From: Bacteroidota bacterium
GTDB taxonomy: Bacteria; Bacteroidota; Bacteroidia; Bacteroidales; FEN-979
Direction: 5' to 3'
Length of the DNA: 64,000 bases
Assembly (NCBI GenBank): GCA_037131145.1
Contig: JBAXRP010000001.1
Location: 2,587-66,586 of the forward strand
The notes under the pieces were generated by a model. That model did no database searches, was not told the origin of the DNA, and saw nothing but the letters and a program-made list of their open reading frames with translations. This document shows positions 20,838-35,852 of the stretch, piece by piece. Made by a program: the position numbers and the translations under genes. How positions within the stretch are numbered: position 1 is the stretch's first letter; the number at the start of each line of letters is the position of its first letter.

Positions 20838-21303
20838 AAGAGTATTTATCTTTGTTTATATCTTATTTTTAATGCTTAACCAAGCTTGCATCCGGGAAAA
20901 ACCAACTGAATTATATCATAAATTTCCCGGAAACCAATGGGATAGATTTAACTTTTTGAGTTTTGAAATTCCGATTGAAAAATCAAATGAAACTTATGAC
21001 ATTCTTTTGCTATTCAGTTTCACACCCGAATATCCATACGAGACACTTTTTTTTAACATGGACTTGAAAACGCCATCGGGGGAGGAGCGAATCAATGAAT
21101 ATCAGTTGAAAATAAAAACTAAAGACGGAAAATTTCTTGGTGAAGTTAAGGGTGATTCCTGTCAGCTTTCCATTACCTTGAAGCGGTATTTAAAAATTAC
21201 AAAACCAGGCATTCTAAAGATTGAACTCGAAAATCTGATCCCACGTATGACAACACAAGGGATATCAGGAGTTGTAATCAGTATAATGCATTCAGGCAAG
21301 TAG
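20815..21303 (+). CDS. gldH: GldH-like gliding-motility lipoprotein
   Basis: 162 aa with a signal peptide and lipobox (LNQAC). The W..F.F, YDI....F..EYPYE.LFF and TPSGE pattern resembles GldH. It overlaps the kinase stop by 23 nt. Confidence 0.55.
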   Translation: MANPFRTKRVFIFVYILFLMLNQACIREKPTELYHKFPGNQWDRFNFLSFEIPIEKSNETYDILLLFSFTPEYPYETLFFNMDLKTPSGEERINEYQLKIKTKDGKFLGEVKGDSCQLSITLKRYLKITKPGILKIELENLIPRMTTQGISGVVISIMHSGK

Positions 21304-21744
21304 ATATAACGCCTTTCGTTTATCCTCACGAATTTGAAATGCGAGTTCATCAAGATTCTTGAACTTTATTTCGGCACGTATTCTGTCAATAAATTTAACG
21401 ACCAGGGTTTTTCCATATAGATCCTCGGAAAAATCGAATATATGAATTTCCACTCTCATTGTTTTTCCATCAACAGTTGGTCGAATTCCAGCGTTCGCAA
21501 TTCCTTTCAAAACACGCATTTCGACTACAGTATTAACAGCATAAACTCCATAAGGTGGTAAAAATAGATTGTTATCATCTAGTTCAAGATTGGCAGTTGG
21601 AAAACCCAACTTCCTACCCAAATGATTTCCATGAACCACGATACCTGTAATCGAATAAATATCTCCAGTAAGTTGAATAAATAGCCGCATGTTTCCCTCT
21701 GCAAGAGCGACTTTTGCTATCTCTGAAAACTTCTCAGGATTCAT
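21292..21744 (-). CDS. monofunctional riboflavin kinase (RibF C-terminal domain only)
   Basis: 150 aa with GRKLGFPTANL, YGVYAV and HIFDFSEDLYGK motifs. There is no FAD-synthetase domain. It starts 5 nt after the upstream gene. Confidence 0.85.
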   Translation of the reverse strand: MNPEKFSEIAKVALAEGNMRLFIQLTGDIYSITGIVVHGNHLGRKLGFPTANLELDDNNLFLPPYGVYAVNTVVEMRVLKGIANAGIRPTVDGKTMRVEIHIFDFSEDLYGKTLVVKFIDRIRAEIKFKNLDELAFQIREDKRKALYLLA

Positions 21745-21749
21745 CCACG

Positions 21750-22658
21750 TTAGAAAAGATTCTTATCTTTTTTACTAAGCCTTTTAATCATAATCAACTC
21801 ATAAACCGCATAAATATAATGAGCCCACACACCTAAAAGCATGACTATAAGTGTAATTATCATCCACATGGGAGCAATAGGAGTCCATAATTCCCGCGAA
21901 GGAACTTCCGCCTTGTAATATTGTTTTGGTACGCCCCAGTTTATAGTGTTTTTACCCTCCACAGCTCCATAAACGTCATGCTCTTCAATTCTCGCAATCA
22001 CAACAAGGTTTCCCAGAGTATCTCCAACAATCTCTTTTGGAAACTCAAGTGTTCCTGTTCCCGTTTCATCCAGCGAAATCTCGCCAATTTTAAGAAGGCT
22101 GAAAAGCCTTGGTACATATATAATAACAGTTTCTTTAGAAATCGGAATTACCTCTCTTTTCGCATTTTTCTGAGTTGCTGTAACTTTTAGTGTTTTAACA
22201 GAATCCTCGATGCTGAAAAAAAGCTTAAGACTAGCGGGTTTTGCGGTAAAAGAGGCCTCAGCGTCCTGATATCTATCGGTTCCGGTAAATTTTGCCAAGT
22301 ATGAAATCATTCCGTCTTTGTTTGTCGGTAAACCAGAATGCGAGAAAGTAAATTTGGCAATTCCCTCTTGATTTGTTTTAACTTTCCCAATTACCATGTT
22401 AGATGTTTCCCCAATCACAATAAATTCAATCTGAGCATCTTCGAGGGCAAGTGTAATGTCTCCACGTTTGATAAGCAGCGTAGCTGTGAGGTTCACTGAA
22501 TCCTGCGGACCACATAAATAGCCCAAAGTAAGCCGGGTTTCTATAGTCATATTTACAGAATCCGACTTTTCCTCTGCTTTCAGATAGTTTGGTTGCATCA
22601 TTGTGATGCACAAAACCAAAATGGTCATAAAAGAGTTATAATTTTTCATAATGATCAT
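21750..22658 (-). CDS. periplasmic beta-rich protein with a signal peptide and C-terminal TM anchor (function unknown)
   Basis: 302 aa. N-terminal hydrophobic leader and a C-terminal helix (MWMIITLIVMLLGVWAHYIYAVY). It is the last structural gene of the NrfCD/cytochrome operon. Confidence 0.65.
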   Translation of the reverse strand: MIIMKNYNSFMTILVLCITMMQPNYLKAEEKSDSVNMTIETRLTLGYLCGPQDSVNLTATLLIKRGDITLALEDAQIEFIVIGETSNMVIGKVKTNQEGIAKFTFSHSGLPTNKDGMISYLAKFTGTDRYQDAEASFTAKPASLKLFFSIEDSVKTLKVTATQKNAKREVIPISKETVIIYVPRLFSLLKIGEISLDETGTGTLEFPKEIVGDTLGNLVVIARIEEHDVYGAVEGKNTINWGVPKQYYKAEVPSRELWTPIAPMWMIITLIVMLLGVWAHYIYAVYELIMIKRLSKKDKNLF

Positions 22659-22675
22659 TTAATTTCAGTTTAGTT

Positions 22676-23995
22676 TCAAACCAATATATCATCCTTTTTT
22701 GCTTCTTCCCGCAAACCAGTTACTGGTACAATGGGTACAAACTTTGAGGCAAGCGTAAATAGAAGGCAGAACACGGCAACTCCCGCAGCATTCAAGCTCC
22801 ATTCCACCCAAGTAGCCGTATAATTTAACCACTCAGGCCTTGCATCCTGTATGGGGAGATACGGCGACTCAAGTGTAGGCACCACAATAATATAACGATT
22901 CAACCAAAGAGCTATAACGACAACAATTGAAGTAAGCGTGATATTAGTTATCGTTCTGAATTTTGGTATTCCTACCACGATCAGCGGTAACAGCACACCA
23001 ATATAATTGGAGATAATAAAGGGCCAGTAGAATTCTTTAAAAAGCAACTGAATAAGTAATTCGTCATTTTTTTCCGACCCATACCATTTCGTCAGGTAAT
23101 CGCTAAAAGTAAAATATCCAAAAAATGCGGCAAGCACAAGCATTATTACCCCAACAGCAACGAAGTGTTTTTTTGTAATGTATTCCTCAAGATGATAAAC
23201 CTTTCTAAAAATCCACATTGTGATTATCAGTACTGCGCTTCCCGAATATACAGCCGCAATTACAAAGTAAGGGCCAAAAATAGTACTGTGCCAACCAGGT
23301 TGCAGTGTAACGCTAAAAATCCACGCCAATACAGAATAAACGATAATAGCTATGGAAATTACCATCGCAGCCATAATATCTGTTGCACTGTTGAGACGCT
23401 GCTGTTGTTCCGGGGTGCCGGTATAACCCAATGCAAGGGCTTTATAAAGGCGTTTTCTCCACATAGGAAGTCGTAGGAAGTCATCATCACGAAGTGTTGC
23501 CAGATCGCGTAATAAGGCAAGATAAAGAAAAATGAAACACCCAAAAATATCGGTTGAAATGGCAATTACGTCCCATGTAATTGGTGATTGAATACGTCCA
23601 AAAATTACAAGATAATAAAGTTTATCAAGTCTTCCAATGCAAAGAAGAATAAAGCAAGGGCCGATTAAAAGTGAAATTACAGTGATAAATTCTGCCATTC
23701 TGATAACCGGTTTGCGCCAGGGTGTTTTGAATAAGTGGAGTGTGCCAGAAATCAAAGCGCCAGCGTAACTGATTCCCATAAAAAAAATGAAGTTGACGAT
23801 ATAAACACCCCAAACAACATTATCGCGCATACCTGTTACTTCATGTCCTTTTATAACCTGTTGTAGAAAAGCATAAATTCCAAGACCGATCACGGCAAGC
23901 AGGAATACAATCCAGGCATATCCTACAAAACTAGTTTGCTCAAGTTGCGGCGCAAATTCTCTTAATGGACTTTTTTTTTCGTTTTCCATATTCAC
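22676..23995 (-). CDS. NrfD/PsrC-family polytopic quinone-interacting membrane subunit
   Basis: 439 aa with about 10 TM helices. The N-terminal signature (GHEVTGMRDNVVWGVYIVNFIFFMGISYAG) is typical of NrfD. ATGA overlap with the upstream gene. Confidence 0.8.
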   Translation of the reverse strand: MNMENEKKSPLREFAPQLEQTSFVGYAWIVFLLAVIGLGIYAFLQQVIKGHEVTGMRDNVVWGVYIVNFIFFMGISYAGALISGTLHLFKTPWRKPVIRMAEFITVISLLIGPCFILLCIGRLDKLYYLVIFGRIQSPITWDVIAISTDIFGCFIFLYLALLRDLATLRDDDFLRLPMWRKRLYKALALGYTGTPEQQQRLNSATDIMAAMVISIAIIVYSVLAWIFSVTLQPGWHSTIFGPYFVIAAVYSGSAVLIITMWIFRKVYHLEEYITKKHFVAVGVIMLVLAAFFGYFTFSDYLTKWYGSEKNDELLIQLLFKEFYWPFIISNYIGVLLPLIVVGIPKFRTITNITLTSIVVVIALWLNRYIIVVPTLESPYLPIQDARPEWLNYTATWVEWSLNAAGVAVFCLLFTLASKFVPIVPVTGLREEAKKDDILV

Positions 23996-24954
23996 GGCTT
24001 ATTTTTTTTACTGTATGGTGTATCCTTATATCTGCTTTTTACCTCATCAGTCAAATCCGGAAAACCACGATCAACGGGAAACTGACGATCAACGGGTGGT
24101 AGGTAATAAACACAAGGCCTTGTACCAAGAGTTTCAAGGTATCTGTATCCAGCCCGGTCACGGATTAACTGGCTGAACTGATATGTTTCAGTTCCATTGG
24201 TTACAGTATCTTCATCCACATCCCCAAAATATATTACGCCCATCGGGCAGGCGGAAACGCAATATGGCACTTTGCCAACCCGTATCAGGTCGGGACAAAA
24301 ATCGCATTTAGAAACAGTGCCCTCCTTTCCAGGGCTGCTCGCTTCCGGTGAATAGGGCTCTTTATCTTCATCAAACTCGTGATAATGTTTCCATGCAAAA
24401 ACACGGGTTGAATATGGGCAACCTGTCATGCAGAATTTGCATCCAATGCAACGTTCATTATCGATCAATACAATTCCATCGCTTCGTTTATATGTGGCGC
24501 CAACCGGGCAAACACTCACGCACAAAGGGTTGTCGCAGTGAAAGCAGGGTTTTGGAAACCAGTACGGAGAAGTTTTTTCAGAATCCTGTAACAAGTACAC
24601 CTTCAAAAACTCCTGACTTTTTGGAAGATGATGCCCTTTCTGGCAGGCCTCTACGCATTTCCTGGCATTTTTGCATTTACCAAGATCAATAACCATGACA
24701 AATTTTCGTCCTGGAAGTCCTTTATGGGATTCTTCGCGTGATACCCTCGGCAGTTTAAGAAGGCCTCTATCCACTTCCATAATTTCTCCTTCAGTGGTGA
24801 GGACTTTTACCTTCTTTCCGGATTCGGTTGCATTCGCGTCAACGTATGCTGCAACCAATCCACTACCGGCTGCTATTCCGGCTCCAGCCAGTAGCCCTTT
24901 TTTCAAAAACTGTCTTCTGGTATTTTTTTTATTCTGATTAGTATGCTCTTCCAC
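23992..24954 (-). CDS. Tat-exported 4Fe-4S ferredoxin-type subunit (NrfC/PsrB/DmsB-like)
   Basis: 320 aa with the twin-arginine leader TRRQFLKKGLLAGAG. Four Cys clusters: CKNARKCVEAC, CFHCDNPLCVSVCP, CIGCKFCMTGCP, CDFC...CVSACP. Confidence 0.85.
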   Translation of the reverse strand: MEEHTNQNKKNTRRQFLKKGLLAGAGIAAGSGLVAAYVDANATESGKKVKVLTTEGEIMEVDRGLLKLPRVSREESHKGLPGRKFVMVIDLGKCKNARKCVEACQKGHHLPKSQEFLKVYLLQDSEKTSPYWFPKPCFHCDNPLCVSVCPVGATYKRSDGIVLIDNERCIGCKFCMTGCPYSTRVFAWKHYHEFDEDKEPYSPEASSPGKEGTVSKCDFCPDLIRVGKVPYCVSACPMGVIYFGDVDEDTVTNGTETYQFSQLIRDRAGYRYLETLGTRPCVYYLPPVDRQFPVDRGFPDLTDEVKSRYKDTPYSKKNKP

Positions 24955-24965
24955 GTTTCTGGGTT

Positions 24966-25589
24966 TTAATGTGACTCATGATAACCATTGATCATGCTTT
25001 TAAAATTACTTGTCGGATTTTTTCCGATAGTGCAAAAATATATGTGAACACACATGATTAGACTAATGCCAAAGCCAGAAATAATATGCACAAAATCGGT
25101 CAGATCCAATCCGCTGAAACCGAAAATACTGTTAACGGTGATTTCCGGATACAACAGACCGAATCCGGAAATAATTACAAATGGCACCAGAACATACATC
25201 AGAACAACATAGGTAACTTGTTGTAACGGATTAAATTTTTCTTCCTCATTAACCGGAAAAGGGGCTTGTTCATTTTTGAAAATTCCTATTGTATAAAAAT
25301 ATAGTTGTTTTTTCAGCCTGTCAAATGTATTTTTCAGCGGAATTACATAATGACCGCCGTTTTTCGTGAAAAGATTCCCGAAAAAGAAAACAATGTAACT
25401 TAATGAAAGCAGCATCCCCGCAATATTATGCAAAGTAACAGCCATATTAAATTTAACAATTGTTGAAGGATTTGAAAACTGGATACTTAAACCTGTAATA
25501 ATTAAAATCAAACAAAGTAGTGCATTTGTCAAGTGCCAAATCCTGATCCAAACAGGATACAAATAAAGGCGTTGGGAGCTATGATTCAT
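24966..25589 (-). CDS. membrane di-haem cytochrome b-like subunit (PhsC / Ni-Fe hydrogenase cytochrome b family-like)
   Basis: 207 aa with 4 predicted TM helices and conserved-looking His residues (WIRIWHLTNA, TLHNIAG, FVHIISG, CVHIYF). Confidence 0.6.
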   Translation of the reverse strand: MNHSSQRLYLYPVWIRIWHLTNALLCLILIITGLSIQFSNPSTIVKFNMAVTLHNIAGMLLSLSYIVFFFGNLFTKNGGHYVIPLKNTFDRLKKQLYFYTIGIFKNEQAPFPVNEEEKFNPLQQVTYVVLMYVLVPFVIISGFGLLYPEITVNSIFGFSGLDLTDFVHIISGFGISLIMCVHIYFCTIGKNPTSNFKSMINGYHESH

Positions 25590-26616
25590 GTGGATGATTA
25601 TTTTTAATGCGCAAAACTGCGTGGATAATTATTACGAGAATGGTTAGTCCAAAAATAATCAGACTAATTATATTTAAGGTGTTACTTTGATCTGGTCCAA
25701 TAGTGGTGGAATTTCCCATTAGCAAACCTTTAATAAAACCTTCTTTCTGAATTTGCGAACTCACCTGGTATTTATATAAGGAGGCGTAAAGAATAGAATT
25801 CTGTGAATGGCAGGATTCACACTTTCTGACCGCCAGGCTCTTAGGTACAACATGATGGGCAACAACCAAAGTATCCTCATTTTTGGCATGACATTCAATA
25901 CATCTAACATTTGTAAAATGAGAGGCCTGATTTGGCAGCCATTCATGTTTTTGAAGGATATTTGGATTTACTTTGTCGGTAAGTAACTGATAATTTTTTA
26001 TATCTGCATGACAGTTCAGGCATATAAGGTTATCATAAGTAATAGTTTCTTTAAGGATATTGGTATTACGCGCATTGATTTTGTAGGTATGTGCATCATG
26101 ACACATCCAGCATGTAAAATCTTCGCTATGTTTCTCGGAATGGACACTGGCCATAAAGCCTGTATCAATTTGTTCAAATTGAAATTTTGCGTATTTCTCA
26201 TCTCCACCATGACAGTCAATACAAGTGGCAATTGCTTCCATGCGAAGGTTGCCGTTATGGGGGAAAGTACCATAATCTTCGGAATGACAATCGGTACATT
26301 TAAACTCGCGGTGGTTGGACGAGTAAAAAAGTTCGCGGTTGATTATAACTTCTGAATACATCCGTTTGGAAACATTTCTATTTGCTTCTTTATTTTGATA
26401 TGTATATTTTGACTGACCGTGACATTTGAAGCAGTTTTCGTTTTCGATATAATTTTTAAATTTCGTAAAATCAGTCTTTGCCTGTTGTTCTTTTTCGGTT
26501 TGAGTTGTAATAATAGGCTTTGAATCAGATGTTTTTAAAAGGATAAGGGCAATGGCGCACAAAAGCAACATCATAAGAACGAGCCAGGCCGGGCGTAAAT
26601 TTGCTTTATAAATCAT
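25579..26616 (-). CDS. membrane-anchored heptahaem cytochrome c
   Basis: 345 aa with seven CxxCH motifs (CFKCH, CTDCH, CIDCH, CWMCH, CLNCH, CIECH, CESCH). It has both an N-terminal hydrophobic anchor and a C-terminal TM helix. Confidence 0.85.
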   Translation of the reverse strand: MIYKANLRPAWLVLMMLLLCAIALILLKTSDSKPIITTQTEKEQQAKTDFTKFKNYIENENCFKCHGQSKYTYQNKEANRNVSKRMYSEVIINRELFYSSNHREFKCTDCHSEDYGTFPHNGNLRMEAIATCIDCHGGDEKYAKFQFEQIDTGFMASVHSEKHSEDFTCWMCHDAHTYKINARNTNILKETITYDNLICLNCHADIKNYQLLTDKVNPNILQKHEWLPNQASHFTNVRCIECHAKNEDTLVVAHHVVPKSLAVRKCESCHSQNSILYASLYKYQVSSQIQKEGFIKGLLMGNSTTIGPDQSNTLNIISLIIFGLTILVIIIHAVLRIKNNHPHES

Positions 26617-26649
26617 AGTATCTTAAAAGTAAGTATGAGGGATTGCATT

Positions 26650-26697
26650 GCAAAACAAATGGGTGTAAACAGGAAATTATCTGTTTTACACCCATTT
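26650..26697 (-). terminator. terminator hairpin after the 138-aa cytochrome c gene
   Basis: A 16-17 bp stem with one bulge: aaatgggtgtaaacag (26657-26672) pairs with ctgttttacacccattt (26681-26697). A short U-rich tract follows on the minus strand. Confidence 0.6.
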
Positions 26698-26725
26698 GGT
26701 TAATCATATTAGAACCGGTATGCAG

Positions 26726-27142
26726 TTATTTCTTGAAAGTGCGCATGTAGGCAACCAACGACCAACGATCGTTTGCATCGGGAATTTTCTTTTCGTAGGC
26801 AGGCATTTCATCTCGGCCTTTATCAGTGCGGAAGAAAAGTTCGCCATCAGTGGATCCCTGGAAAGCTGCTGAAGAGAAATCTCCCGGAAAAGTTTTTAGG
26901 GAAGCGCCCTTTGGTCCATCACCCAACCCTTTGCTGCCATGGCACGATTTACAATGTTTTGCCCAAAGTTCCTTCCCGGTAGCTACATCAGCTTTTGCTG
27001 AGGCTTTCAGAGCCTTGTCTTTATCGGGAACAGGCCATGCCTTTGCTTTGGCTTGTTGTGCTGAAGCAGCCTGACCAAACAGAAAAACAACAGCAACGAT
27101 AGCTGTTACGATGATTGTTGCAATTTTTTGAGATGTTTTCAT
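26726..27142 (-). CDS. periplasmic monohaem class I cytochrome c
   Basis: 138 aa with a signal peptide ending ASA-QQ, a single CKSCHG motif and a distal Met (DEMPAY). Confidence 0.85.
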   Translation of the reverse strand: MKTSQKIATIIVTAIVAVVFLFGQAASAQQAKAKAWPVPDKDKALKASAKADVATGKELWAKHCKSCHGSKGLGDGPKGASLKTFPGDFSSAAFQGSTDGELFFRTDKGRDEMPAYEKKIPDANDRWSLVAYMRTFKK

Positions 27143-27186
27143 AATTTTTAATTGTTAGTTATTTGACATTTTGTTTTGGTTTTGGA

Positions 27187-28254
27187 TTAAAAGGTCCATA
27201 ACCGGGTTATATTAAATCCAAGAAGAATAGCGCCATTATATGGATTATTGTTATTATACATAACTGTTTCCTGGGGAAGAAGTCCATTTGCTGCTGTTAA
27301 AAAAATCTGGAAAGCATGGGTACTTGTTGAAATTTCCACGCCAAGACCAAAATTGGGCCACGGGGCAGTATTGACATAAGTAAATACAGGTTGAGAGTAA
27401 CTTAAAATGATTGAAGCCTGCGGACTTATCTTCACTTTTCCTATACCTGAGATATTGATATTATCGTTTTTCATTCCATTTACATGGTTATTGTCTGCTT
27501 CTGCTTGATCAACCAGATTATAATGTACCCATGAAATCCCCAATTGTGCTGAAAATTCTTTACAAAATCTACGTGCAAACATAAATTCAGCAAAATATGA
27601 AAACCTGTAAGAAGCTTTAAAGGTTTGGTCAAAAAGATTTCCCAGATCAGACTGATTAGCTCCATTTAATCCTGTTGCCTGGTTGTATGTAATATAGTTC
27701 AGTCCAGAGTTTGTATCATTTTCAATTATCTGATTTTGAATACTTCTCCGAAACGCTGTATCCTTAACTAAGGAATTGTAATCAAGATCAGATAGTAGTT
27801 TATTATTTCCAAGCGATGACTTGTTACTGGCATTGATCGCTACATTTCCGAAAAAACTAATGGTGACAGGAAAACCATCTTTTCTCTGGCGGGCAATTAC
27901 ATATTTAATGTTGAAATCCTGGAGCATTTTTAGCTTAGTGGTTCCAAACCCCACCTGTAGATTTTTTGTTATTGTAAAATTAAGCCCGAGACGGATGTTT
28001 GAAGCGCCCCAAATACCATACAGGTCAGACCAGTGTTGTTGTATCGTTCCAAAGTCATGCTGGATAACAGCTTCAAGGGTTCTTGCAGGGGGCAGAAAAA
28101 CTGTTCGGTCTGCCATAAAATAACCGCTTTCAAATGGAGCTTTTGCCAATGGTTTCTGGGTTGGTTGTTCAGGGATCGAATCCTGCGCAAAACCCATTCC
28201 AAGACCGCTCATCATGAAGATGAAACCCAGCGCTAATCGTTTCATTTTATCCAT
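27187..28254 (-). CDS. putative outer-membrane beta-barrel protein (DUF5777-like)
   Basis: 355 aa with a signal peptide (GMGFAQD), alternating hydrophobic beta-strand patterns and a C-terminal aromatic beta-signal (ITRLWTF). The family name is from memory and unverified. Confidence 0.55.
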   Translation of the reverse strand: MDKMKRLALGFIFMMSGLGMGFAQDSIPEQPTQKPLAKAPFESGYFMADRTVFLPPARTLEAVIQHDFGTIQQHWSDLYGIWGASNIRLGLNFTITKNLQVGFGTTKLKMLQDFNIKYVIARQRKDGFPVTISFFGNVAINASNKSSLGNNKLLSDLDYNSLVKDTAFRRSIQNQIIENDTNSGLNYITYNQATGLNGANQSDLGNLFDQTFKASYRFSYFAEFMFARRFCKEFSAQLGISWVHYNLVDQAEADNNHVNGMKNDNINISGIGKVKISPQASIILSYSQPVFTYVNTAPWPNFGLGVEISTSTHAFQIFLTAANGLLPQETVMYNNNNPYNGAILLGFNITRLWTF

Positions 28255-28300
28255 AAGATTTATGTATGTATTTCGATTAATATTAGTGTGAAAAAATCAA

Positions 28301-28693
28301 TTAATTATTTACCGCGCCCTCATTGATCCATTTTAAGACTGAATCGGCATTCGCTTTGTTACAATGCTGGCTCATCCCTCCCCCGGGAGCCATTTCGATA
28401 TAAAGGTCGCTGTTTTCCGGAACGGCTATGTCTATCATACCAGCCATATTCTTCAATGCCAGATAGGATTTTCCATCAATCAGAACTGGTGGATTCTGCC
28501 CAATACCATGACAACTAACGCATTTTTCATTAAAAATGGGTTGTATTTCCCCGGCATAGCTAATTTTACCTGGTACCGGAGGAGGAGGAGGAGGTGAAGG
28601 AGGATCAGGTACGATTAAATCCTTCGTACATGCAGAAAAGATAAAAAGCACGAAAAAGATCGTAATCAGTTTTTTCAACTTTTTGCTTTGCAT
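28301..28693 (-). CDS. monohaem c-type cytochrome lipoprotein with a poly-proline linker
   Basis: 130 aa with lipobox FSAC-TKD and linker PDPPSPPPPPPVPG, then IQPIFNEKCVSCHG (a PSCyt-like haem motif). Confidence 0.7.
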   Translation of the reverse strand: MQSKKLKKLITIFFVLFIFSACTKDLIVPDPPSPPPPPPVPGKISYAGEIQPIFNEKCVSCHGIGQNPPVLIDGKSYLALKNMAGMIDIAVPENSDLYIEMAPGGGMSQHCNKANADSVLKWINEGAVNN

Positions 28694-28774: not shown

Positions 28775-28804
28775 GTAAAAAAGCCTCAGGTTCTCTGAAG
28801 CCTT
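28775..28804 (-). terminator. terminator-like hairpin with T-run between the hexahaem gene and the downstream operon
   Basis: On the minus strand, AGGCTTCAG...CTGAGGCTT (two G-U pairs) is followed by TTTTTTAC. Confidence 0.45.
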
Positions 28805-28845: not shown

Positions 28846-28900
28846 CCAGAGAAAACACAAATTCCAAAAATAAAATGTGATTTATTTCTGGAATCTGTGT
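28846..28900 (-). terminator. terminator hairpin after the hexahaem cytochrome gene; also contains the AAATTCCAA repeat core
   Basis: acacaaattccaaaaataaa (28855-28874) pairs with tttatttctggaatctgtgt (28881-28900), 18/20 complementary. A TTTT tract follows on the minus strand. Confidence 0.55.
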
Positions 28901-28915
28901 TGCAATAAAAAACAA

Positions 28916-30220
28916 TTATGGATGTGCAGTTACCCAATCAATCGAATTTTGTAAAAGCTGTAATGCATAAGGAGGATTATGAACGCCTAATGATAATTCA
29001 CTGTTGATATAGGCATAATTGTAAGCAGCTCCTAATTCTCCATATTTCCATACACGGCCTATTCTGTTAGCAAAATCGGTATCTTTTGCGTATTTCAGCA
29101 TATTGCCGTAAATCACCAGACCAGTTGTAGGGCTAACCGTATTGTTACTTGCACTGGTTGCATAAAGTTCTGAACTTGTAACAGTTTGGTACAGTTTTCC
29201 ATTAAAATCGTGGCTTGGCTGAGCGCTGTACGATACAACGCCGGAGGTACTTGTAGTTTTCTTGAAAACTTTTCTCGCAGTAAGGAGTTCGGCTAATTCA
29301 ATGCGTTTTGCATCAATAAGGGCTTGAACAGGTGTTATTTTATCGCCACCGTGGCAAGCAGTACATTCAGCTTTGTTAGCCCATAATGTATGACCACCAG
29401 TTGAGTCGGCTGGATTATATGTATTCATGTGGCAATCAGTACATGCAAAAGCAGAGTGTTTCCAAGTTCTTGTATAGGTTTTGCCTTGATATTCATAACC
29501 ATTAATACCTGAAAATAAATTTGACTGGTTTCCATCATGAACCGAGAAGCTTCTCCCTACACGGTATTGAACAGTATCAAGATCGTTTGTATTTACAAAA
29601 GGAAAGTATGGCAGTTGATCAAATGCCTTATTTATAACCTGAGGTCTGAGAGTAGTGTCGGAATAAACCAGAGAGGTATAGCCACGAATCTGGTGACAAC
29701 TAACACACAGATTATTAATTGCGCCAAAATCCGTCGCAGTAAGATTTTTGTTATAATTTAAATACACAGGGTTAATATTCGTTAAAATTTGAGAAACTGT
29801 GTCGCCTGTAAAATCAAATGAACTATGTTTATGGCACGTTGTGCAGTTAATTCTGTTAGCAGTTGGCATGTCGTTGGCTACAATAAATTTCCCACTACCG
29901 AGATTCTGCATAAATCCTTCACTTGTATGACATCCTGCGCAAAACTTGGTATTTCTTGCGCTTGTTGTACCAAGATAATGTTTTGAGAAATGATACTCAG
30001 CAATTTTAGTATCAAAATTAGCAATTGTGTGGCAAACAAGACAGGAAGCAGTTCCGTCTTTTCCATTTAAGCCATCAACACCGTTCACGCCATTAATTCC
30101 GTTTACTCCGTTTACTCCGGCAGTACCCTGCGGACCTTCTTTGGTGCAGGCAGTAAACATCAACATTGCAGCCGAAACCATCATTCCGGCAACAATAATA
30201 AATTTGTGTAATTTTTTCAT
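28916..30220 (-). CDS. hexahaem cytochrome c lipoprotein with a collagen-like G-X-Y linker
   Basis: Six CxxCH motifs (CLVCH, CAGCH, CTTCH, CVSCH, CTDCH, CTACH). I chose the start at ATG 30220 (MKKLHKFIIVAGMMVSAAMLMFTAC, a lipobox) rather than the track TTG at 30292. Nine G-X-Y triplets follow directly after the lipid-anchor Cys. Confidence 0.85.
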   Translation of the reverse strand: MKKLHKFIIVAGMMVSAAMLMFTACTKEGPQGTAGVNGVNGINGVNGVDGLNGKDGTASCLVCHTIANFDTKIAEYHFSKHYLGTTSARNTKFCAGCHTSEGFMQNLGSGKFIVANDMPTANRINCTTCHKHSSFDFTGDTVSQILTNINPVYLNYNKNLTATDFGAINNLCVSCHQIRGYTSLVYSDTTLRPQVINKAFDQLPYFPFVNTNDLDTVQYRVGRSFSVHDGNQSNLFSGINGYEYQGKTYTRTWKHSAFACTDCHMNTYNPADSTGGHTLWANKAECTACHGGDKITPVQALIDAKRIELAELLTARKVFKKTTSTSGVVSYSAQPSHDFNGKLYQTVTSSELYATSASNNTVSPTTGLVIYGNMLKYAKDTDFANRIGRVWKYGELGAAYNYAYINSELSLGVHNPPYALQLLQNSIDWVTAHP

Positions 30221-30373
30221 TTTTTTACAGATTTTGTTAATAAATACGTTTGAATTGCAGCAGACAACTTGTGCAAAAAGTTTCCGCGACAAAAGTATCT
30301 AAGAAAACAAGAGCCCCTCGTATGGTATTGGTGAGATTTGTTAATATAATAACTGACATTTCTCAACAGCCTG

Positions 30374-30387
30374 TTGATAAATATCAA
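30374..30387. promoter_or_regulatory. perfect FNR/CRP-family box TTGAT-AAAT-ATCAA upstream of the hexahaem cytochrome gene
   Basis: 10/10 match to TTGAT-N4-ATCAA. It lies 154 nt upstream of ATG 30220 and 14 nt downstream of the Crp/Fnr gene stop. A TACTTTTG -7 box sits at 30290-30297 on the minus strand. Confidence 0.7.
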
Positions 30388-30400
30388 TCATTATATATAA

Positions 30401-31096
30401 TCAGCCAGTTTCGCTGATCTGACGAAGTTGTTTTACATTAAGGATTTCCATTTTATTTCCTGCAACAGTTAATATACCCTCCTCCTTAAATTCTTTTAAA
30501 ATTCTTATGGCGCTTTCCTTTGACATGCCCGAAAGATCGGCCAGATCCTGCCGCGAAATGCTTAGTTCAAAAGGATTCTTGCAATAGATTTTTTCGGAAA
30601 GGTAAAAAATGACGTCGGCAATCCTACCGGGCATTTGCTTTTGAGTCAGACTAACGATTTGTTCAAAGTTAAAGATGGATTGCAGAGATACTCGTTTTAA
30701 AAAATCCTCGGCAAAATCGGGGTTTTCACGAATCAGTTTTTTAAAAACGGATGCATCAACAAGGCAGGCGGTACAGTCTTCAACGGCTGATGCTGAATAA
30801 TAGTGACGATTATCAACGTATATACCAGGTCCGAAGATGTAATCCACAGGTTTTACAAGCGCCAGAATAAGATTCTTGCCATAGCCCTCAATATAGATCT
30901 TTGCCAATCCGGATGTTATACAAACAAAGTATGGCGAAGGAGTGCCTTGTTTGAAAATGATTTCTCCACCTTTATAATCAACCTGAAATCGGCTGTTGTT
31001 GATCAGATCAAGCTCCGTCGAACCTAAATTTTTAAAAATCTGAGTTTTGCAGTTGCAATCATTACAATTGGATGCCTGATGATTTTTATTGATCAT
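30401..31096 (-). CDS. Crp/Fnr-family transcriptional regulator with an N-terminal Cys cluster
   Basis: cNMP-binding-like beta-roll followed by a C-terminal HTH (RQDLADLSGMSKESAIRILKEF). I chose the start at ATG 31096 (MINKNHQASNCNDCNC), because the 23 extra residues of the track ORF are implausibly hydrophobic. Confidence 0.85.
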   Translation of the reverse strand: MINKNHQASNCNDCNCKTQIFKNLGSTELDLINNSRFQVDYKGGEIIFKQGTPSPYFVCITSGLAKIYIEGYGKNLILALVKPVDYIFGPGIYVDNRHYYSASAVEDCTACLVDASVFKKLIRENPDFAEDFLKRVSLQSIFNFEQIVSLTQKQMPGRIADVIFYLSEKIYCKNPFELSISRQDLADLSGMSKESAIRILKEFKEEGILTVAGNKMEILNVKQLRQISETG

Positions 31097-31192
31097 TATA
31101 CTGCCTCTTAGACTTTGCTTTTTAGTATCGGACAAAATTAGTAATAAAATGATAAAAAGCAACAATTTTACTATTTTTCATCAACTAAGAGG

Positions 31193-31206
31193 TTGATAAA
31201 AATCAA
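31193..31206. promoter_or_regulatory. perfect FNR box TTGAT-AAAA-ATCAA upstream of the Crp/Fnr gene
   Basis: 10/10 half-site match, 97 nt upstream of ATG 31096. A TAATTTTG -7 box sits at 31133-31140 on the minus strand. Confidence 0.7.
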
Positions 31207-31290
31207 TTGACTGTTTTATTTTTAACAAGGTTTAGGATTTCAGGCTCCATGCTTTAAAATTCGACATTCGGTTTTTCAGTTTTTCAGTTT

Positions 31291-32280
31291 TCACATAAGT
31301 TCAGCATTTTCGAGATATTCGGCGATTTGAACAGCATTGGTGGCGGCGCCTTTGCGAAGGTTATCAGCAACGATAAATAAATTGAGGGAGGCAGGTTGGG
31401 ATTCATCCCGTCGGATACGACCGACAAAAACCGCATCCGACCCTTTTGCAATCAGAGGCATCGGATATATATTCTTTGCCGGATCATCCTGAATAACTAT
31501 TCCGGGAGTTCCTGATAATATCGCTTTTATATCAGGTAATGTGAAATCATGTTCAAATTCAACGTTTACCGCTTCTGAATGTCCGCCCAATACAGGAACC
31601 CTCACAATAGTTGAGGTGATCCTGATGGAATAATCGTTCAGAATTTTATGTGTTTCATTTCGAAGTTTCATCTCTTCCGTGGTATATCCGTTTTCGAGAA
31701 AATCGCCGCCATGAGGAAACAGGTTCAGGTCTATCTGGTGTGGATATGCCATCGCCCCTGAAACGCCATTGCGTTCATTTTCTAATTGTCGCACCGCTTT
31801 TGCTCCAGTTCCCGTTACCGATTGATAAGTAGAAACCACGATTCTTCTGATGCGGTATTTTTCATGCAGCGGCGCGAGCGCCATAACCAATTGAATTGTA
31901 GAACAGTTTGGATTAGCTATTATTTTATGCGCGCTAGTAAGGATTGAAGCGTTGATTTCAGGAACAATCAGCGGAACATCCGGATCCATACGCCATGCCG
32001 AAGAGTTATCAATTACCGTACATCCAGCCGATGCATATCGTTTAGCCCATTCCTTCGAAACTGTGGCGCCGGCAGAAAAGATGGCTAAATCCGGGTTATG
32101 CGTAATCGCAACAGTATTTGATTGAACAACGTGGGTTTGATTATTGAATATAACCGATGATCCTTCCGATTTTGCGGAAGCAACAGGAATCAACAAATCC
32201 GGGTGGAATTTGCGCTCTTCCAGAACCTTCAGTATTTCTCTGCCTACCAGTCCGGTAGCGCCTACAATTGCCAGTTTCAT
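31291..32280 (-). CDS. asd: aspartate-semialdehyde dehydrogenase
   Basis: 329 aa with the N-terminal Rossmann motif MKLAIVGATGLVG, the active-site region NPNCST, and an Asd-typical length. Confidence 0.92.
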   Translation of the reverse strand: MKLAIVGATGLVGREILKVLEERKFHPDLLIPVASAKSEGSSVIFNNQTHVVQSNTVAITHNPDLAIFSAGATVSKEWAKRYASAGCTVIDNSSAWRMDPDVPLIVPEINASILTSAHKIIANPNCSTIQLVMALAPLHEKYRIRRIVVSTYQSVTGTGAKAVRQLENERNGVSGAMAYPHQIDLNLFPHGGDFLENGYTTEEMKLRNETHKILNDYSIRITSTIVRVPVLGGHSEAVNVEFEHDFTLPDIKAILSGTPGIVIQDDPAKNIYPMPLIAKGSDAVFVGRIRRDESQPASLNLFIVADNLRKGAATNAVQIAEYLENAELM

Positions 32281-32396
32281 GCGGGGTCGAGTTTTGGCAA
32301 AGATACTGAAATGGCGAAATGACGAAATGGTAAAAAAAGTTATTAACAGTGGTTTTACTTTTGGGGTTTTTGGGGATTAAACAGAAAAATGAAATC

Positions 32397-34985
32397 ATGA
32401 AAAAAATATTTTTCTTTCTTTGCCTTGCTCCTATGATGGGGCTGGGGCAGGTTATTGATAATTTTTCGGATGGAAATTTTTCGGTCAATCCCGCGTGGAC
32501 AGGCGATACGGCGCAATTTGAGGTTAGTTTGGGCAATCAACTCCAGTTGCAATCATCCGGCGCCGACACTTCCGTTCTTCTTACTCCCAACAGTAGAACG
32601 CTAAATACCGAATGGAGTTTCTGGATGAAATTATCTTTCAATACCTCAGCAAATAATCACGCAAGGATTTATTTACTGTCCGATTCGGCAAATCTGAAAT
32701 GCGCCAACGCTATCTTTTTGCAGGTTGGAGGCTCCGATGATTCCATCGCGATAATTAAGCAGAATGGCATTGAGCTAACATCATTATACAGATTCAAATC
32801 ATATAAAACCGATAATTCTACAAATATCATGCGGTTCAGAATAATCAGAGACGACCGGGGCGACTGGGAAACAAATATTGATACAACCGGTGGTTTCAAT
32901 TATATTCCTGATGGCGGTTTTTCGGAAAATTCATTGTTTCAATCCAGATGGTTTGGAGTTTACTGCCGTTATACATCAAGCAATGCTACAAAATTATGGT
33001 TTGATGATTTCTATGTAGGAGCGATCATACATGATACTACTCCGCCACAAGTAATCTCACAGGAAATTATCTCTGAAAATATAATCAAAATTGCAATGTC
33101 GGAACCCATTCAGAAGCAGGAGGCGGAAAACCCCGAAAACTTCAGGCTTTTTTCAGGTGGTTATCCCGATTCGGCAAAACTGGAAGTAAACGATCCAACA
33201 GTTATTATTCTTAGTTTTCCCGGAATATTCCCCGAAGGTGTGATTGATACATTATCCGTTCATGGCATAAGCGACCTCAACGGAAACATAATTCTGGATA
33301 CCCTGGTTCCGGTTTTTTATTACAAGCCAAAGGCTTTTGACATTGTAATCGTCGAAATTCTTGCCGACCCTGAGCCGCCGGTTGAACTGCCTGTTGCAGA
33401 ATTTGTAGAATTATACAACCGCACCGTTTATCCGCTGAATCTGAAAGATTGGACATTTCAGTATGGAAGCTATTCAAAAATATTCCCAGATGTGACGATA
33501 CCTCCAAAAAACTATTTGATTATATCTAAAGATTCGGTTTTCCTCCATTTTGGTTTATGCACAACATTGTTCACGTCATCAAGTTCATTGTCAAATGAAG
33601 GTACAACATTGGCGCTAATGGATCAGAAAAAGCATGTAATTCATTCAGTTTCATATAGCCCTGAATGGTTTGGCGGTTCCTTCAAAGGGGATGGAGGATG
33701 GTCGCTCGAAATGTCCGACCCTGAAAATCCTTGCGGTTGTATGGAAAACTGGTGCGCCTCCACCGATTATTCCGGAGGAACTCCAGGAAGAATAAATTCG
33801 AATTTCAGGTCAAATCCAGATATTACCAAACCTCTCATTTCAAGGGCTTTTATCGCCGATTCATCTACGCTGAAAGTGAGTTTTTCGGAAGCCATGGATA
33901 GCCTTACTTTGCTTTCGCGTGAGAAATGGATTGTAAACCCTGAAGAGTTGGGACATCCCGAAAGTGTGGAACCTGAAGCGCCAAGGTTTGACGCGGTAAA
34001 ATTGCATTTTAACAATCCGTTTTCGAGAGGCGTTTTATATAATTTGGCAATCGCCGGCAAAATGAAAGATTGTGTCGGAAACCAGATTGATTCATCGCGG
34101 AATGTGCGGTTTGCAATTCCCGATTCCGTAGCGCTTCACGATATTGTAATCAATGAGTTTTTACCTGATCCCGCCACCGGCGGATCGAGATTTGCGGAAC
34201 TTTATAACCGTTCGGAAAAGATACTTGATCTGCAATCATTGGTCATCGCGGTTAGCGACAGCGCAAGCCTTCAGTCTGATGCAGAACCATTGACTGATAA
34301 TGGCTATTTGTTGTTTCCTGGCGATTATGTGGCGTTTACTTCCATTCCTGCTGATATTATTTCACGCTACCGACCACAGTTTCCAGAAGCGATTATGGGG
34401 ATGGAAAAATTCCCAACTTTGGGAAATGATTCGGGAACCGTTATCATTGCGCGAAAGGACAACTTTACCATTATTGACCGGGTTCGGTATGACGCAGCCA
34501 TGCATTATCCGATATTGGCGACAACCGAAGGCGTTTCACTTGAACGGGCAAGCCCTGAGTTACCATCCGACGACAGGAACAATTGGCATTCGGCGGCAGA
34601 AACCGTAGGATTTGCGACGCCGGGATACCTAAATTCGCACCGGCTTGATTCGCCAAACGATGGGTTGGATATATCGGTAACGCCGGAAGTTTTTTCACCG
34701 GATAACGACGGGTTTGACGATCTGCTGAATATCGCAATTCGTGAACCAAATCCTGGATTTTCAGTTAATATTTACATTTACGATTCGCATGGAAGAGCGA
34801 TAAAACAGTTGGCAAACCAGGTTTATGCAGGCAACGAGGGGGTTTTCTGCTGGGATGGAATGACTGGCGCAAACAGAAAAGCCGGAATCGGCATATATGT
34901 TTTGCTGATCGAATTAACAAGGCAGGATGGAACTGTAAAAAAAGTGAAGAAAACCACGGTACTTGGAGGAAAGTTATCACAATAA
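32397..34985 (+). CDS. secreted protein with two lamin-tail (LTD) domains and a gliding/T9SS-type C-terminal domain
   Basis: Start chosen at ATG 32397 (MKKIFFFLCLAPMMGLGQ, a signal peptide). LTD signatures IVIVEILADPEP..EFVELYNRT and IVINEFLPDPA..FAELYNRS. The C-terminus reads FSPDNDGFDD...GIYVLLIEL. Confidence 0.75.
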   Translation: MKKIFFFLCLAPMMGLGQVIDNFSDGNFSVNPAWTGDTAQFEVSLGNQLQLQSSGADTSVLLTPNSRTLNTEWSFWMKLSFNTSANNHARIYLLSDSANLKCANAIFLQVGGSDDSIAIIKQNGIELTSLYRFKSYKTDNSTNIMRFRIIRDDRGDWETNIDTTGGFNYIPDGGFSENSLFQSRWFGVYCRYTSSNATKLWFDDFYVGAIIHDTTPPQVISQEIISENIIKIAMSEPIQKQEAENPENFRLFSGGYPDSAKLEVNDPTVIILSFPGIFPEGVIDTLSVHGISDLNGNIILDTLVPVFYYKPKAFDIVIVEILADPEPPVELPVAEFVELYNRTVYPLNLKDWTFQYGSYSKIFPDVTIPPKNYLIISKDSVFLHFGLCTTLFTSSSSLSNEGTTLALMDQKKHVIHSVSYSPEWFGGSFKGDGGWSLEMSDPENPCGCMENWCASTDYSGGTPGRINSNFRSNPDITKPLISRAFIADSSTLKVSFSEAMDSLTLLSREKWIVNPEELGHPESVEPEAPRFDAVKLHFNNPFSRGVLYNLAIAGKMKDCVGNQIDSSRNVRFAIPDSVALHDIVINEFLPDPATGGSRFAELYNRSEKILDLQSLVIAVSDSASLQSDAEPLTDNGYLLFPGDYVAFTSIPADIISRYRPQFPEAIMGMEKFPTLGNDSGTVIIARKDNFTIIDRVRYDAAMHYPILATTEGVSLERASPELPSDDRNNWHSAAETVGFATPGYLNSHRLDSPNDGLDISVTPEVFSPDNDGFDDLLNIAIREPNPGFSVNIYIYDSHGRAIKQLANQVYAGNEGVFCWDGMTGANRKAGIGIYVLLIELTRQDGTVKKVKKTTVLGGKLSQ

Positions 34986-35666
34986 AGCGGTGGCAATACA
35001 AGCAATGCTGATCTTAACTTCTGGTATCAACTCTAATGCGTGAATGCAGGATTCGAGGGTGGCACCGGTTGTAACTACATCATCAACAAGCAATAGATGC
35101 TTTCCGCGCCATTGTTCAGGCTCTTTCACGAGGAATATCTCGCGAACATTCTGATACCTTCTGAAACGCGATTTGCGGGTTTGCGTTTCGGTGGCTTTTG
35201 TGCGTATAAGTAAATGCCGGTTCACCGGAATTTTCATTGCGGATGAGAGACCAATGCCAAACTGCTCGCTTTGGTTATAGCCTCGTTTCATGTATTTCTT
35301 TTTGTGCAAAGGAACCGGAATGATCAAATCGGCACAATTAAACAAGGGAGCATATTTCAGGGTTTGTCCGTAAAACGAGCCAAGAAAAATCCCGATATCC
35401 TTTCTTCCCTTGTATTTCAACTGATGTACCAATTGCTGAACTTTATTTCCTTTGTTGAAATAGAGAAAAGCCGCGCCAGAGAAGAGAGACGCCCTGCCCC
35501 AGAATATCCGCGCCACTGGATTATCCTCCGAAAAATGAAAATTGGTTTTCGGAAGATGAAATTCACAGGAATGGCAGATTACATCTTCGTGTTTCCACAA
35601 ACTGTTGCCACAGGCGGCGCAAATCCTTGGAAAGATAAGTGAAGTGAAGTCGCTTAACCATTTCAT
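34977..35666 (-). CDS. ComF-family phosphoribosyltransferase-domain protein
   Basis: 229 aa with an N-terminal Cys4 (CAAC...CHSC) and the PRTase motif LLLVDDVVTTGATL. Confidence 0.85.
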   Translation of the reverse strand: MKWLSDFTSLIFPRICAACGNSLWKHEDVICHSCEFHLPKTNFHFSEDNPVARIFWGRASLFSGAAFLYFNKGNKVQQLVHQLKYKGRKDIGIFLGSFYGQTLKYAPLFNCADLIIPVPLHKKKYMKRGYNQSEQFGIGLSSAMKIPVNRHLLIRTKATETQTRKSRFRRYQNVREIFLVKEPEQWRGKHLLLVDDVVTTGATLESCIHALELIPEVKISIACIATALL

Positions 35667-35760
35667 CGGTTTTTAATGGTTAATCGGTATTGATGGCAAA
35701 AGGTGAAACCGGTTTTAAAGATTTTTTATTTTTCAATCGTATATCGGCTAAAAAAACCAG

Positions 35761-35774
35761 TTGATCGCTATCAA
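35761..35774. promoter_or_regulatory. perfect FNR box TTGAT-CGCT-ATCAA
   Basis: 10/10 half-site match in the 186-bp gap upstream of the ComF-family gene, 95 nt from its ATG. Confidence 0.5.
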
Positions 35775-35852
35775 GTCTCATTGAAACTAAAGGAATTCAA
35801 ATTTTTGCCGGGTATGGGGTCGCGCCACCATTTTGATGGCATCATTCCACCC

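Follow-up and report, generated by a model that had tools for sequence, protein, structure and literature searches.

Conserved FNR-type boxes at the promoters of a cysteine-bearing Crp/Fnr-family regulator and an adjacent six-haem cytochrome gene in a Bacteroidota genome

The window analysed here, a 64,000-nt stretch of contig JBAXRP010000001.1 from a Bacteroidota bacterium of the Bacteroidales, carries TTGAT-N4-ATCAA palindromes of the FNR type at the promoters of two neighbouring minus-strand genes. One encodes a Crp/Fnr-family regulator of 231 amino acids (30401-31096; N-terminus MINKNHQASNCNDCNC), the other a six-haem lipoprotein cytochrome of 434 amino acids (28916-30220). Judged by their conservation, these two boxes are real regulatory elements, and we consider it likely that they and their weaker phased neighbours serve as operators of the adjacent regulator, which would act as an Fe-S sensor. 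The comparisons show how the sites are conserved, placed, phased and linked to genes, and that the regulator has conserved Cys residues and a Crp/Fnr fold; that this protein binds the boxes, carries an Fe-S cluster, responds to oxygen, activates one gene and represses the other, and that transcription starts where assumed here, is inferred. A first-pass annotation had grouped three perfect boxes as FNR-type sites. Its operator reading holds for boxes 1 and 2, which are conserved, operator-like sites at the cytochrome promoter and the regulator's own promoter in about 67 species, but not for the third, upstream of comF, which is not conserved and lies in a lineage-specific indel.

A pattern search of the whole window returned exactly three perfect matches to TTGATNNNNATCAA (TTGAT-N4-ATCAA), all palindromic and intergenic, and thus agrees with the earlier statement that no other perfect copy is present. 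Box 1 (TTGATAAATATCAA, 30374-30387) is located in the spacer that separates the regulator stop codon (30401) from the cytochrome ATG (30220), box 2 (TTGATAAAAATCAA, 31193-31206) between the stop codon (31291) of asd (31291-32280, minus strand) and the regulator ATG (31096), and box 3 (TTGATCGCTATCAA, 35761-35774) approximately 100 nt upstream of the ATG (35666) of comF (34977-35666, minus strand); these coordinates match the placement first described for the cytochrome, regulator and comF genes. The rarity claimed for a perfect site, less than one per 64 kb by chance, is borne out by dinucleotide shuffles of the whole window, which gave a mean of 0.39 perfect sites and reached at least three in 2 of 100 cases. 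All three sites fall into the 5,858 nt (9%) of intergenic DNA, where a first-order Markov model expects 0.028 (Poisson P = 4e-4 for at least two and 3e-6 for at least three). When up to two mismatches were allowed, the motif was not enriched in the whole window (75 found versus 79.6 expected), so that only the two promoters, with their perfect and near-perfect sites, stand out. With a position weight matrix (PWM) built from orthologous sites, leaving out the near-identical locus L001, the four promoter sites of the window were among its five best scores (20.4, 18.1, 11.9 and 10.1 bits).

The evidence that carries the operator reading comes from a one-genome-per-species scan, which recovered 78 loci encoding relatives of the regulator, nearly all from uncultured Bacteroidales or Prolixibacteraceae-like genomes and many from stratified lakes, mires and groundwater. 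The orthologue set comprises 67 of these loci, with regulators 66-99% identical. About 66 loci retain the gene order of the window, namely comF, an LTD protein, asd, the regulator, the multihaem cytochrome, a small cytochrome, a DUF5777 protein, a cytochrome c, a seven-haem cytochrome, a cytochrome b and an Fe-S protein. Within these loci of approximately 12 kb, every perfect box lies at most 150 bp from the regulator gene. Across the 67 loci, perfect sites number 36 in the intergenic DNA flanking the regulator (32.5 kb) and 0 in the other 716 kb; with up to one mismatch allowed, the counts are 156 and 42, an 81-fold difference in density, and eight of the 42 are the cytochrome-promoter sites of rearranged loci. 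The concentration of the motif in intergenic DNA, a check that the first-pass annotation had suggested, is therefore seen in these loci, with 36 of 36 perfect sites in the regulator flanks. A site with at most one mismatch is present at 60 of 67 regulator promoters and 56 of 66 cytochrome promoters, and in ungapped column profiles the boxes stand out as conserved islands within otherwise unconserved spacers.

With regards to promoter architecture, the primary sigma factor of Bacteroidetes recognises TAnnTTTG at -7 and TTTG near -33 (PMC7366714). Transcription starts were placed a few nucleotides 3' of the -7 box, and positions such as -71 or -95 rest on that placement; a sigma-70 promoter scan was dropped as uninformative for a Bacteroidetes genome. 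The putative -7 box of the cytochrome promoter, TACTTTTG (30290-30297, minus strand), matches TAnnTTTG, and no TTTG -33 element was found at the usual spacing. Box 1, whose centre precedes the first T of the -7 box by 83.5 nt (about -95), is the distal site of this promoter and has the best PWM score in the window (20.4 bits). At 21 bp from it follows a second, degenerate site with three mismatches, TTGAGAAATGTCAG (30353-30366, minus strand), which is centred at 62.5 nt (about -74) and ranks third in the window (11.9 bits); most loci have TTGAGATATATCAG at the orthologous position, centred 62 nt from the -7 box. Another 22 bp downstream lies a nearly invariant element, TTAACAAATCTCAC (30331-30344, minus strand; centre 40.5 nt from the -7 box, about -52), which occurs once in the window, is conserved more strongly than the FNR-type boxes and recurs in promoter modules from metagenomes. 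This element may be bound by a second factor, or else represent a third site of the phased array in very degenerate form. Downstream of the putative -7 box, the leader contains TTGCACAAGTTGTCTGCTGC with the palindrome ACAAgTTGT (30257-30276, minus strand), likewise a single copy in the window and conserved in one subgroup of loci only. This leader element could be an operator for a repressor; an Rfam scan of the cytochrome leader gave only one match, below threshold, and none for TTGCACAAGTTGTCTGCTGC.

The promoter of the regulator gene is built on a similar array, placed closer to the start. Its distal site is box 2, which scores 18.1 bits and whose centre precedes the -7 box by 59.5 nt (about -71). 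A middle half-site, TTGATGAAAAATAG (31171-31184, minus strand; about -49), lies 22 bp from each neighbour, appears as a conserved TTGATAAAA block in the footprint profile and is a full site in the subgroup L043-L050. The promoter-proximal site TTGCTTTTTATCAT (31149-31162, minus strand; 10.1 bits) overlaps the -33 TTG and the spacer, its centre being 15.5 nt upstream (about -27) of the putative -7 box TAATTTTG (31133-31140, minus strand). A TTG -33 element at 19-nt spacing is found at the regulator promoter only. The first-pass annotation had put the two box centres roughly 70 and 95 nt upstream, which fits the distances measured here: 59.5 and 83.5 nt when counted to the first T of TAnnTTTG, and about -71 and -95 relative to the inferred starts.

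Both arrangements recur in most loci. The regulator promoters follow the plan TTGATATATCTCAA - 8 nt - TTGATAAAA.. - TTGTTTTATATCAA - 8 nt - TAnnTTTG, and the cytochrome promoters the plan TTGATATATATCAA - 7 nt - TTGAGATATATCAG - 7 nt - ATTAACAAATCTCAC - about 33 nt - TAnnTTTG, with neighbouring sites spaced 21-22 or 44 bp apart. TAnnTTTG stands at a fixed distance from the sites in 66 regulator and 59 cytochrome promoters. At the regulator promoters, sites are centred 15-16, in some cases 37, and 58-60 nt before its first T, with 60 cases at 58-60 nt and 51 at 15-16 nt among 66 loci; at the cytochrome promoters, the centres are 61-62 and 82-84 nt before it. With up to two mismatches allowed, scoring of 59 orthologous cytochrome promoters gave 54 sites at 82-84 nt from TAnnTTTG. 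The sites of the window fit this plan exactly.

Rearranged loci show that the sites follow the genes. Where two cytochrome genes occur in tandem (L005, L010, L018 and L019), boxes and the full promoter module precede each gene, and in loci with an insertion between regulator and cytochrome (L028, L049 and L056), it is the cytochrome that keeps the boxes. L062 and L063 have the regulator divergent from an operon of seven-haem cytochrome, cytochrome b, Fe-S and NrfD genes, with two boxes 22 bp apart in the shared spacer, and homologues at 39-42% identity (L067, L071) are likewise divergent neighbours of multihaem cytochrome genes. A scan of metagenome contigs by the tandem-box pattern, with gene content not a criterion, returned 120 contigs, of which 35 carry the regulator and/or the cytochrome module beside the boxes and a further 10 a gene with five to eight haem motifs. 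In L082 and L126, the module precedes a cytochrome gene that comes after NrfD and an unknown protein of the 302-aa type described below; there is no adjacent regulator, which argues for control in trans.

Two further observations concern these modules. The duplicated unit in L005 (6790-6950 and 8420-8590) consists of boxes, a AAATCTCAC element, the -7 box, the leader and the start of the signal peptide, and the same applies to L010, L018 and L019, while the gene behind it ranges from 26% to 94% identity to the cytochrome of the window; this looks like an exchange of cassettes behind a conserved promoter. Separately, L193 (7238-7273) carries a 36-nt element, TTGATATATGTCAAGCACTTTTTTGACTTTTTTCAA, that is found in identical form in about 17 other metagenome loci, L084, L096 and L200 among them, on contigs of 36-41% G+C. 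In L193, a phospholipase-D-like gene and a DNA-alkylation-repair gene are 500 bp apart, and the element lies between them; it is unrelated to cytochromes.

The regulator itself belongs to the Crp/Fnr superfamily, with PF00027 (4e-14) and PF13545 (8.7e-15) both above their cut-offs, and Foldseek matches of its model are almost all Crp/Fnr structures. The best of these by E-value is holo-FNR of Aliivibrio fischeri (E = 6e-15, TM-score 0.68), the best by TM-score 2gau (0.78). The latter, a Crp/Fnr protein of Porphyromonas gingivalis, is also the closest solved structure by sequence (E = 1.3e-17), followed by A. fischeri FNR (about 7e-11); a PDB search with the N-terminal 128 residues returned only proteins with cyclic-nucleotide-binding (cNMP) domains. 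In a BLASTP comparison with RefSeq Escherichia coli FNR (25% identity over residues 8-228, E = 1e-15), Cys11, Cys14 and Cys111 align with the FNR residues Cys20, Cys23 and Cys122. The first-pass annotation had tied its FNR-like reading to N-terminal Cys residues conserved among orthologues, and such conservation was found: Cys11, Cys14, Cys59 and Cys111 are present in 68 of 68 close orthologues and Cys16 in 62 of 68. Cys16 or Cys59 is a candidate for the fourth cluster ligand.

An exhaustive search of cluster representatives widened the family to 198 clusters below 1e-30. Among 131 full-length representatives, Cys11 is kept in 110, Cys14 in 102 and Cys111 in 109, while a third N-terminal Cys occurs at variable spacing (x5, x3, x2 or x1) or is missing, and E-x-x-I-R is common. 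By these alignments, this is a sizeable, uncharacterised FNR-like family in which three ligand positions are held and the fourth moves. Homologues from Flavobacteriales and Salibacteraceae (L072 and L073, 32-36% identity) have the canonical C-x2-C-x5/6-C plus the central Cys and sit between genes for a rhodanese and a pyridine-nucleotide-disulfide oxidoreductase, which suggests a different regulon for them.

The product of the predicted target gene has six CxxCH motifs, a lipoprotein signal and a collagen-like linker, and it matches the MtrC/MtrF domain (PF22113) only weakly, its 30.0 bits equalling the cut-off of 30. The OmcA/MtrC model TIGR03507 of NCBIfam gave 38.6 bits against a cut-off of 209.3, and with its six haems the protein is not a member of the decahaem MtrC/OmcA group. 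Directly 3' of its stop codon lies a hairpin with a 21-pair stem and a U-rich tract (28855-28900, minus strand; -25 kcal/mol, z-score -6.7), which is likely a terminator, and a second hairpin with a T-run (about 28775-28803, minus strand) is located between the six-haem cytochrome gene and the next gene. Judged by these two hairpins, the sequence suggests that the surface cytochrome gene forms its own transcription unit. No boxes were found in the window before any gene of the downstream cluster, and in the orthologous loci sites before the small-cytochrome and seven-haem-cytochrome genes are at background level only. Taken together, the hairpins and the box-less downstream genes support direct control of the surface cytochrome gene only and not of the whole cluster.

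This downstream respiratory cluster (21750-28693, minus strand) is syntenic in about 60 species. It encodes a small c-type cytochrome, a DUF5777 beta-barrel, a cytochrome c, a seven-haem cytochrome, a cytochrome b561, a DsrO/NrfC-like Fe-S protein, an NrfD/DsrP-like membrane protein and a secreted protein of 302 aa without assigned function, and it is a candidate electron conduit without a characterised homologue. A stand-alone riboflavin-kinase-domain protein of 150 aa (21292-21744, minus strand) is encoded 5 nt past the last gene of the cluster; a connection with flavins, as cofactors or as shuttles in electron transfer, is conceivable. The remainder of the window consists of housekeeping genes.

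By analogy with FNR, the regulator would carry a Cys-ligated Fe-S cluster, with Cys11, Cys14, Cys111 and either Cys16 or Cys59 as the likely ligands. Anoxic or reducing conditions would leave the cluster intact, and the protein would then dimerise and bind TTGAT-N4-ATCAA. At the cytochrome promoter, which combines a good -7 box with the lack of a -33 element, dimers would line up on one face of the helix near -95, -74 and possibly -52 and would activate the largely monocistronic gene for the surface-exposed six-haem lipoprotein. At its own promoter, the regulator would occupy the array near -71, -49 and -27. Since the proximal site overlaps the -33 TTG, its occupancy should repress the regulator gene, so that negative autoregulation is predicted, and the upstream sites may contribute cooperativity to this repression.

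Several points weigh against this mechanism or narrow it. On the side of the protein, FNR Cys29 aligns with Gln19, which means that the position of the fourth ligand is not kept. The recognition helix reads KESAIR compared with VETISR in FNR, and all 37 aligned orthologues have Ile in place of the Ser of E-x-x-S-R, the DNA-recognition motif of the FNR group (PMC3590769). The nearest NCBIfam models, Fnr (NF008365) and FnrL (NF045989), gave 54.7 and 55.3 bits, far from their cut-offs of 228 and 300, respectively. The protein is not a canonical FNR. Moreover, the AlphaFold model is mediocre (predicted local distance difference test, pLDDT, 70.7), with residues 1-13 unstructured, and is too uncertain in this part to inform on the geometry of a cluster. 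On the side of the DNA, the almost invariant AACAAATCTCAC element suggests a second factor, and no precedent was found for activation from about -74/-95 at Bacteroidetes sigma-ABfr promoters. The core columns of the PWM are circular, having been trained on sites picked by their likeness to the consensus, and the orthologous loci are mutually related, so their counts are not independent events. Finally, the 3' hairpins and the box-less downstream genes confine the supported target to one gene.

Operators and regulator might function as described and yet respond to something other than oxygen; nitric oxide, thiol-disulfide sensing of the cellular or quinone-pool redox state, iron or Fe-S availability and a ligand of the beta-roll could each serve. 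We regard this as a minority option, although the fourth FNR ligand position is lost and shifts in the wider family (Cys spacings of 2-5, 2-2, 2-3 and 2-1, or C-x2-C alone), the hosts are known from metagenomes of anoxic lakes and peat, settings in which the redox state of iron or humics may outweigh oxygen, and Crp/Fnr relatives use many signals, with DNR, CooA and CprK structures among the matches. Set against this, the regulator has exactly aligned and invariant counterparts of three of the four residues that ligate the FNR cluster, no structure matched its model with a better E-value than holo-FNR, and no haem-binding or cNMP-binding signature was identified in the regulator.

For the third box, the comparison with orthologues gave a different picture than for boxes 1 and 2. 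At its position, a comparable site is missing from all 50 orthologous comF upstream regions; the best candidates in these regions have one to four mismatches and lie elsewhere. In the closest relative (L001; regulator 99% and ComF 96% identical), the alignment shows that the stretch of about 70 bp carrying the box is missing. This indel lies between a gene with an FGE-sulfatase domain and comF (window region 35775-35845 in minus-strand reading versus L001 1331-1448), and no copy of its sequence was found elsewhere in the fetched loci. Box 3 also lacks a phased partner and a TAnnTTTG at the conserved distances, and its PWM score is only 4.1 bits. The absence from the 50 regions and the L001 indel rule out that the comF box is a conserved regulon member, and it is probably a chance or recently acquired site outside the system. 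The regulator may well bind it in vitro, which is plausible because both half-sites are perfect.

That the comF box has become a functional, recently acquired regulon member in this strain is, in our view, doubtful. In favour of this, the box is a perfect 10/10 palindrome although only 0.028 were expected in the intergenic DNA, and its spacer need not prevent binding, since one subgroup has conserved sites with G+C-rich spacers such as TTGATCCGAATCAA. Against a function speak the loss of the stretch in the closest relative, the 50 comF upstream regions without a site at that position, the missing partner and -7 element and the low PWM score.

A further alternative takes boxes 1 and 2 as genuine FNR-type sites that are bound by a global Crp/Fnr paralogue encoded elsewhere in the genome, with the adjacent regulator as a mere target. 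Many family members recognise TTGAT-N4-ATCAA, and the window spans only 64 kb of the genome. However, rearrangements do not part the boxes from this regulator, nor does divergence down to 39-42% identity, autoregulatory sites are found at 60 of 67 regulator promoters, and no second Crp/Fnr gene was found among the 43 window proteins scanned with Pfam (2 of 45 open reading frames, 55050-56996 and 57191-58384, were outside the scan), which makes this explanation improbable. Chance palindromes or structural elements such as a terminator of the regulator gene can be dismissed almost entirely: box 1 does start just 14 nt past the regulator stop codon, and AT-rich intergenic DNA favours such words, but the distance from stop codon to box varies from 18 to 188 nt among loci whereas the cytochrome -7 box keeps a constant distance, box 1 has neither a G+C-rich stem nor a T-run (two findings that also led us to reject it as a terminator), and the site density at the two promoters is 81-fold higher in 67 loci.

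The preferred reading, with the adjacent regulator acting on boxes 1 and 2, has several consequences. An operator tied to a Cys-bearing regulator predicts production of the cytochrome under anoxic or reducing conditions, and the promoter module marks further members of the regulon in metagenomes. Little is understood of how sigma-ABfr promoters are activated in Bacteroidota, and the system offers a compact pair of regulator and promoter for that phylum; to the FNR field it adds a natural variant with an apparently relocated fourth ligand and Ile for the Ser of E-x-x-S-R, but with a TTGAT target that is predicted to be unchanged. A more far-reaching idea, to which we give only modest credence, is that of a Bacteroidota-specific FNR-like branch with a three-Cys core (C-x2-C ... 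C) and a mobile fourth ligand, dedicated to switching interchangeable surface multihaem-cytochrome cassettes and not to global anaerobiosis. A conserved promoter module would precede each cassette, activation would come from phased arrays located well upstream of the sigma-ABfr promoters, and the signal would perhaps be iron or extracellular redox instead of oxygen.

Concerning previous work, putative electron conduits of this kind, so far unassigned, have been described in genomes of freshwater Bacteroidetes (PMC6344600). Our literature search found no paper on DUF5777, none on an FNR-type regulator of cytochromes in Bacteroidetes and no report on the physiology or regulation of the putative electron-transfer cytochromes of freshwater Bacteroidetes; a 2026 preprint on extracellular electron transfer in peat mentions neither Bacteroidota nor regulators.

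The closest known systems are E. coli FNR and its orthologues (ANR, EtrA, FnrL and A. fischeri FNR). They share with the regulator the Crp/Fnr fold, the TTGAT-N4-ATCAA target and the equivalents of Cys20, Cys23 and Cys122, and the holo form of the A. fischeri protein is the best Foldseek match. As with the regulator gene here, fnr has sites at its own promoter. However, the regulator is only 25% identical to FNR and scores far below the FNR/FnrL cut-offs of NCBIfam, its N-terminal spacing is C-x2-C-x-C instead of C-x2-C-x5-C, with an additional invariant Cys59, and its helix carries E-x-x-I-R instead of E-x-x-S-R. Furthermore, it would work at Bacteroidetes -33/-7 promoters, and its regulon is apparently small and local, whereas that of FNR is global.

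The CRP protein of Shewanella recognises a TGTGA-type motif and, unlike the regulator described here, is a cAMP-dependent global regulator without a Cys cluster. The likeness lies in the use of a Crp/Fnr-family activator at promoters of outer-membrane multihaem cytochromes: in Shewanella oneidensis, CRP binds directly upstream of the separate omcA and mtrC promoters (PMC4417206), although the cytochromes concerned are the decahaem MtrC/OmcA and not six-haem proteins. The FNR homologue of Shewanella, EtrA, is described as only fine-tuning anaerobic metabolism (PMC3078092). P. gingivalis 2gau comes from the same phylum and is the closest solved structure by both sequence and TM-score. Its alignment begins at residue 23 of the regulator and does not cover the N-terminal Cys motif, and the PDB entry gives neither a function nor a target motif.

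On the side of the target, the locus resembles the porin-cytochrome conduits MtrCAB and OmbB-OmaB-OmcB in combining a surface multihaem lipoprotein, an outer-membrane barrel (DUF5777), periplasmic cytochromes and an NrfCD/DsrOP-like quinone module. It differs from them in that the MtrC/MtrF match is at threshold only, the OmcA/MtrC model reaches 38.6 bits for a cut-off of 209, the surface cytochrome has six haems instead of ten, and the DUF5777 barrel family is without a characterised member. In comparison with these known cases, the system is FNR-like in its motif, its fold and three of four ligand positions. Strict FNR membership fails on the serine of E-x-x-S-R and the score thresholds, and for the Cys29 position, which is Gln19, Cys16 or Cys59 may stand in. 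It represents a solid comparative-genomics prediction of a system that is of an ordinary kind and unsurprising in principle.

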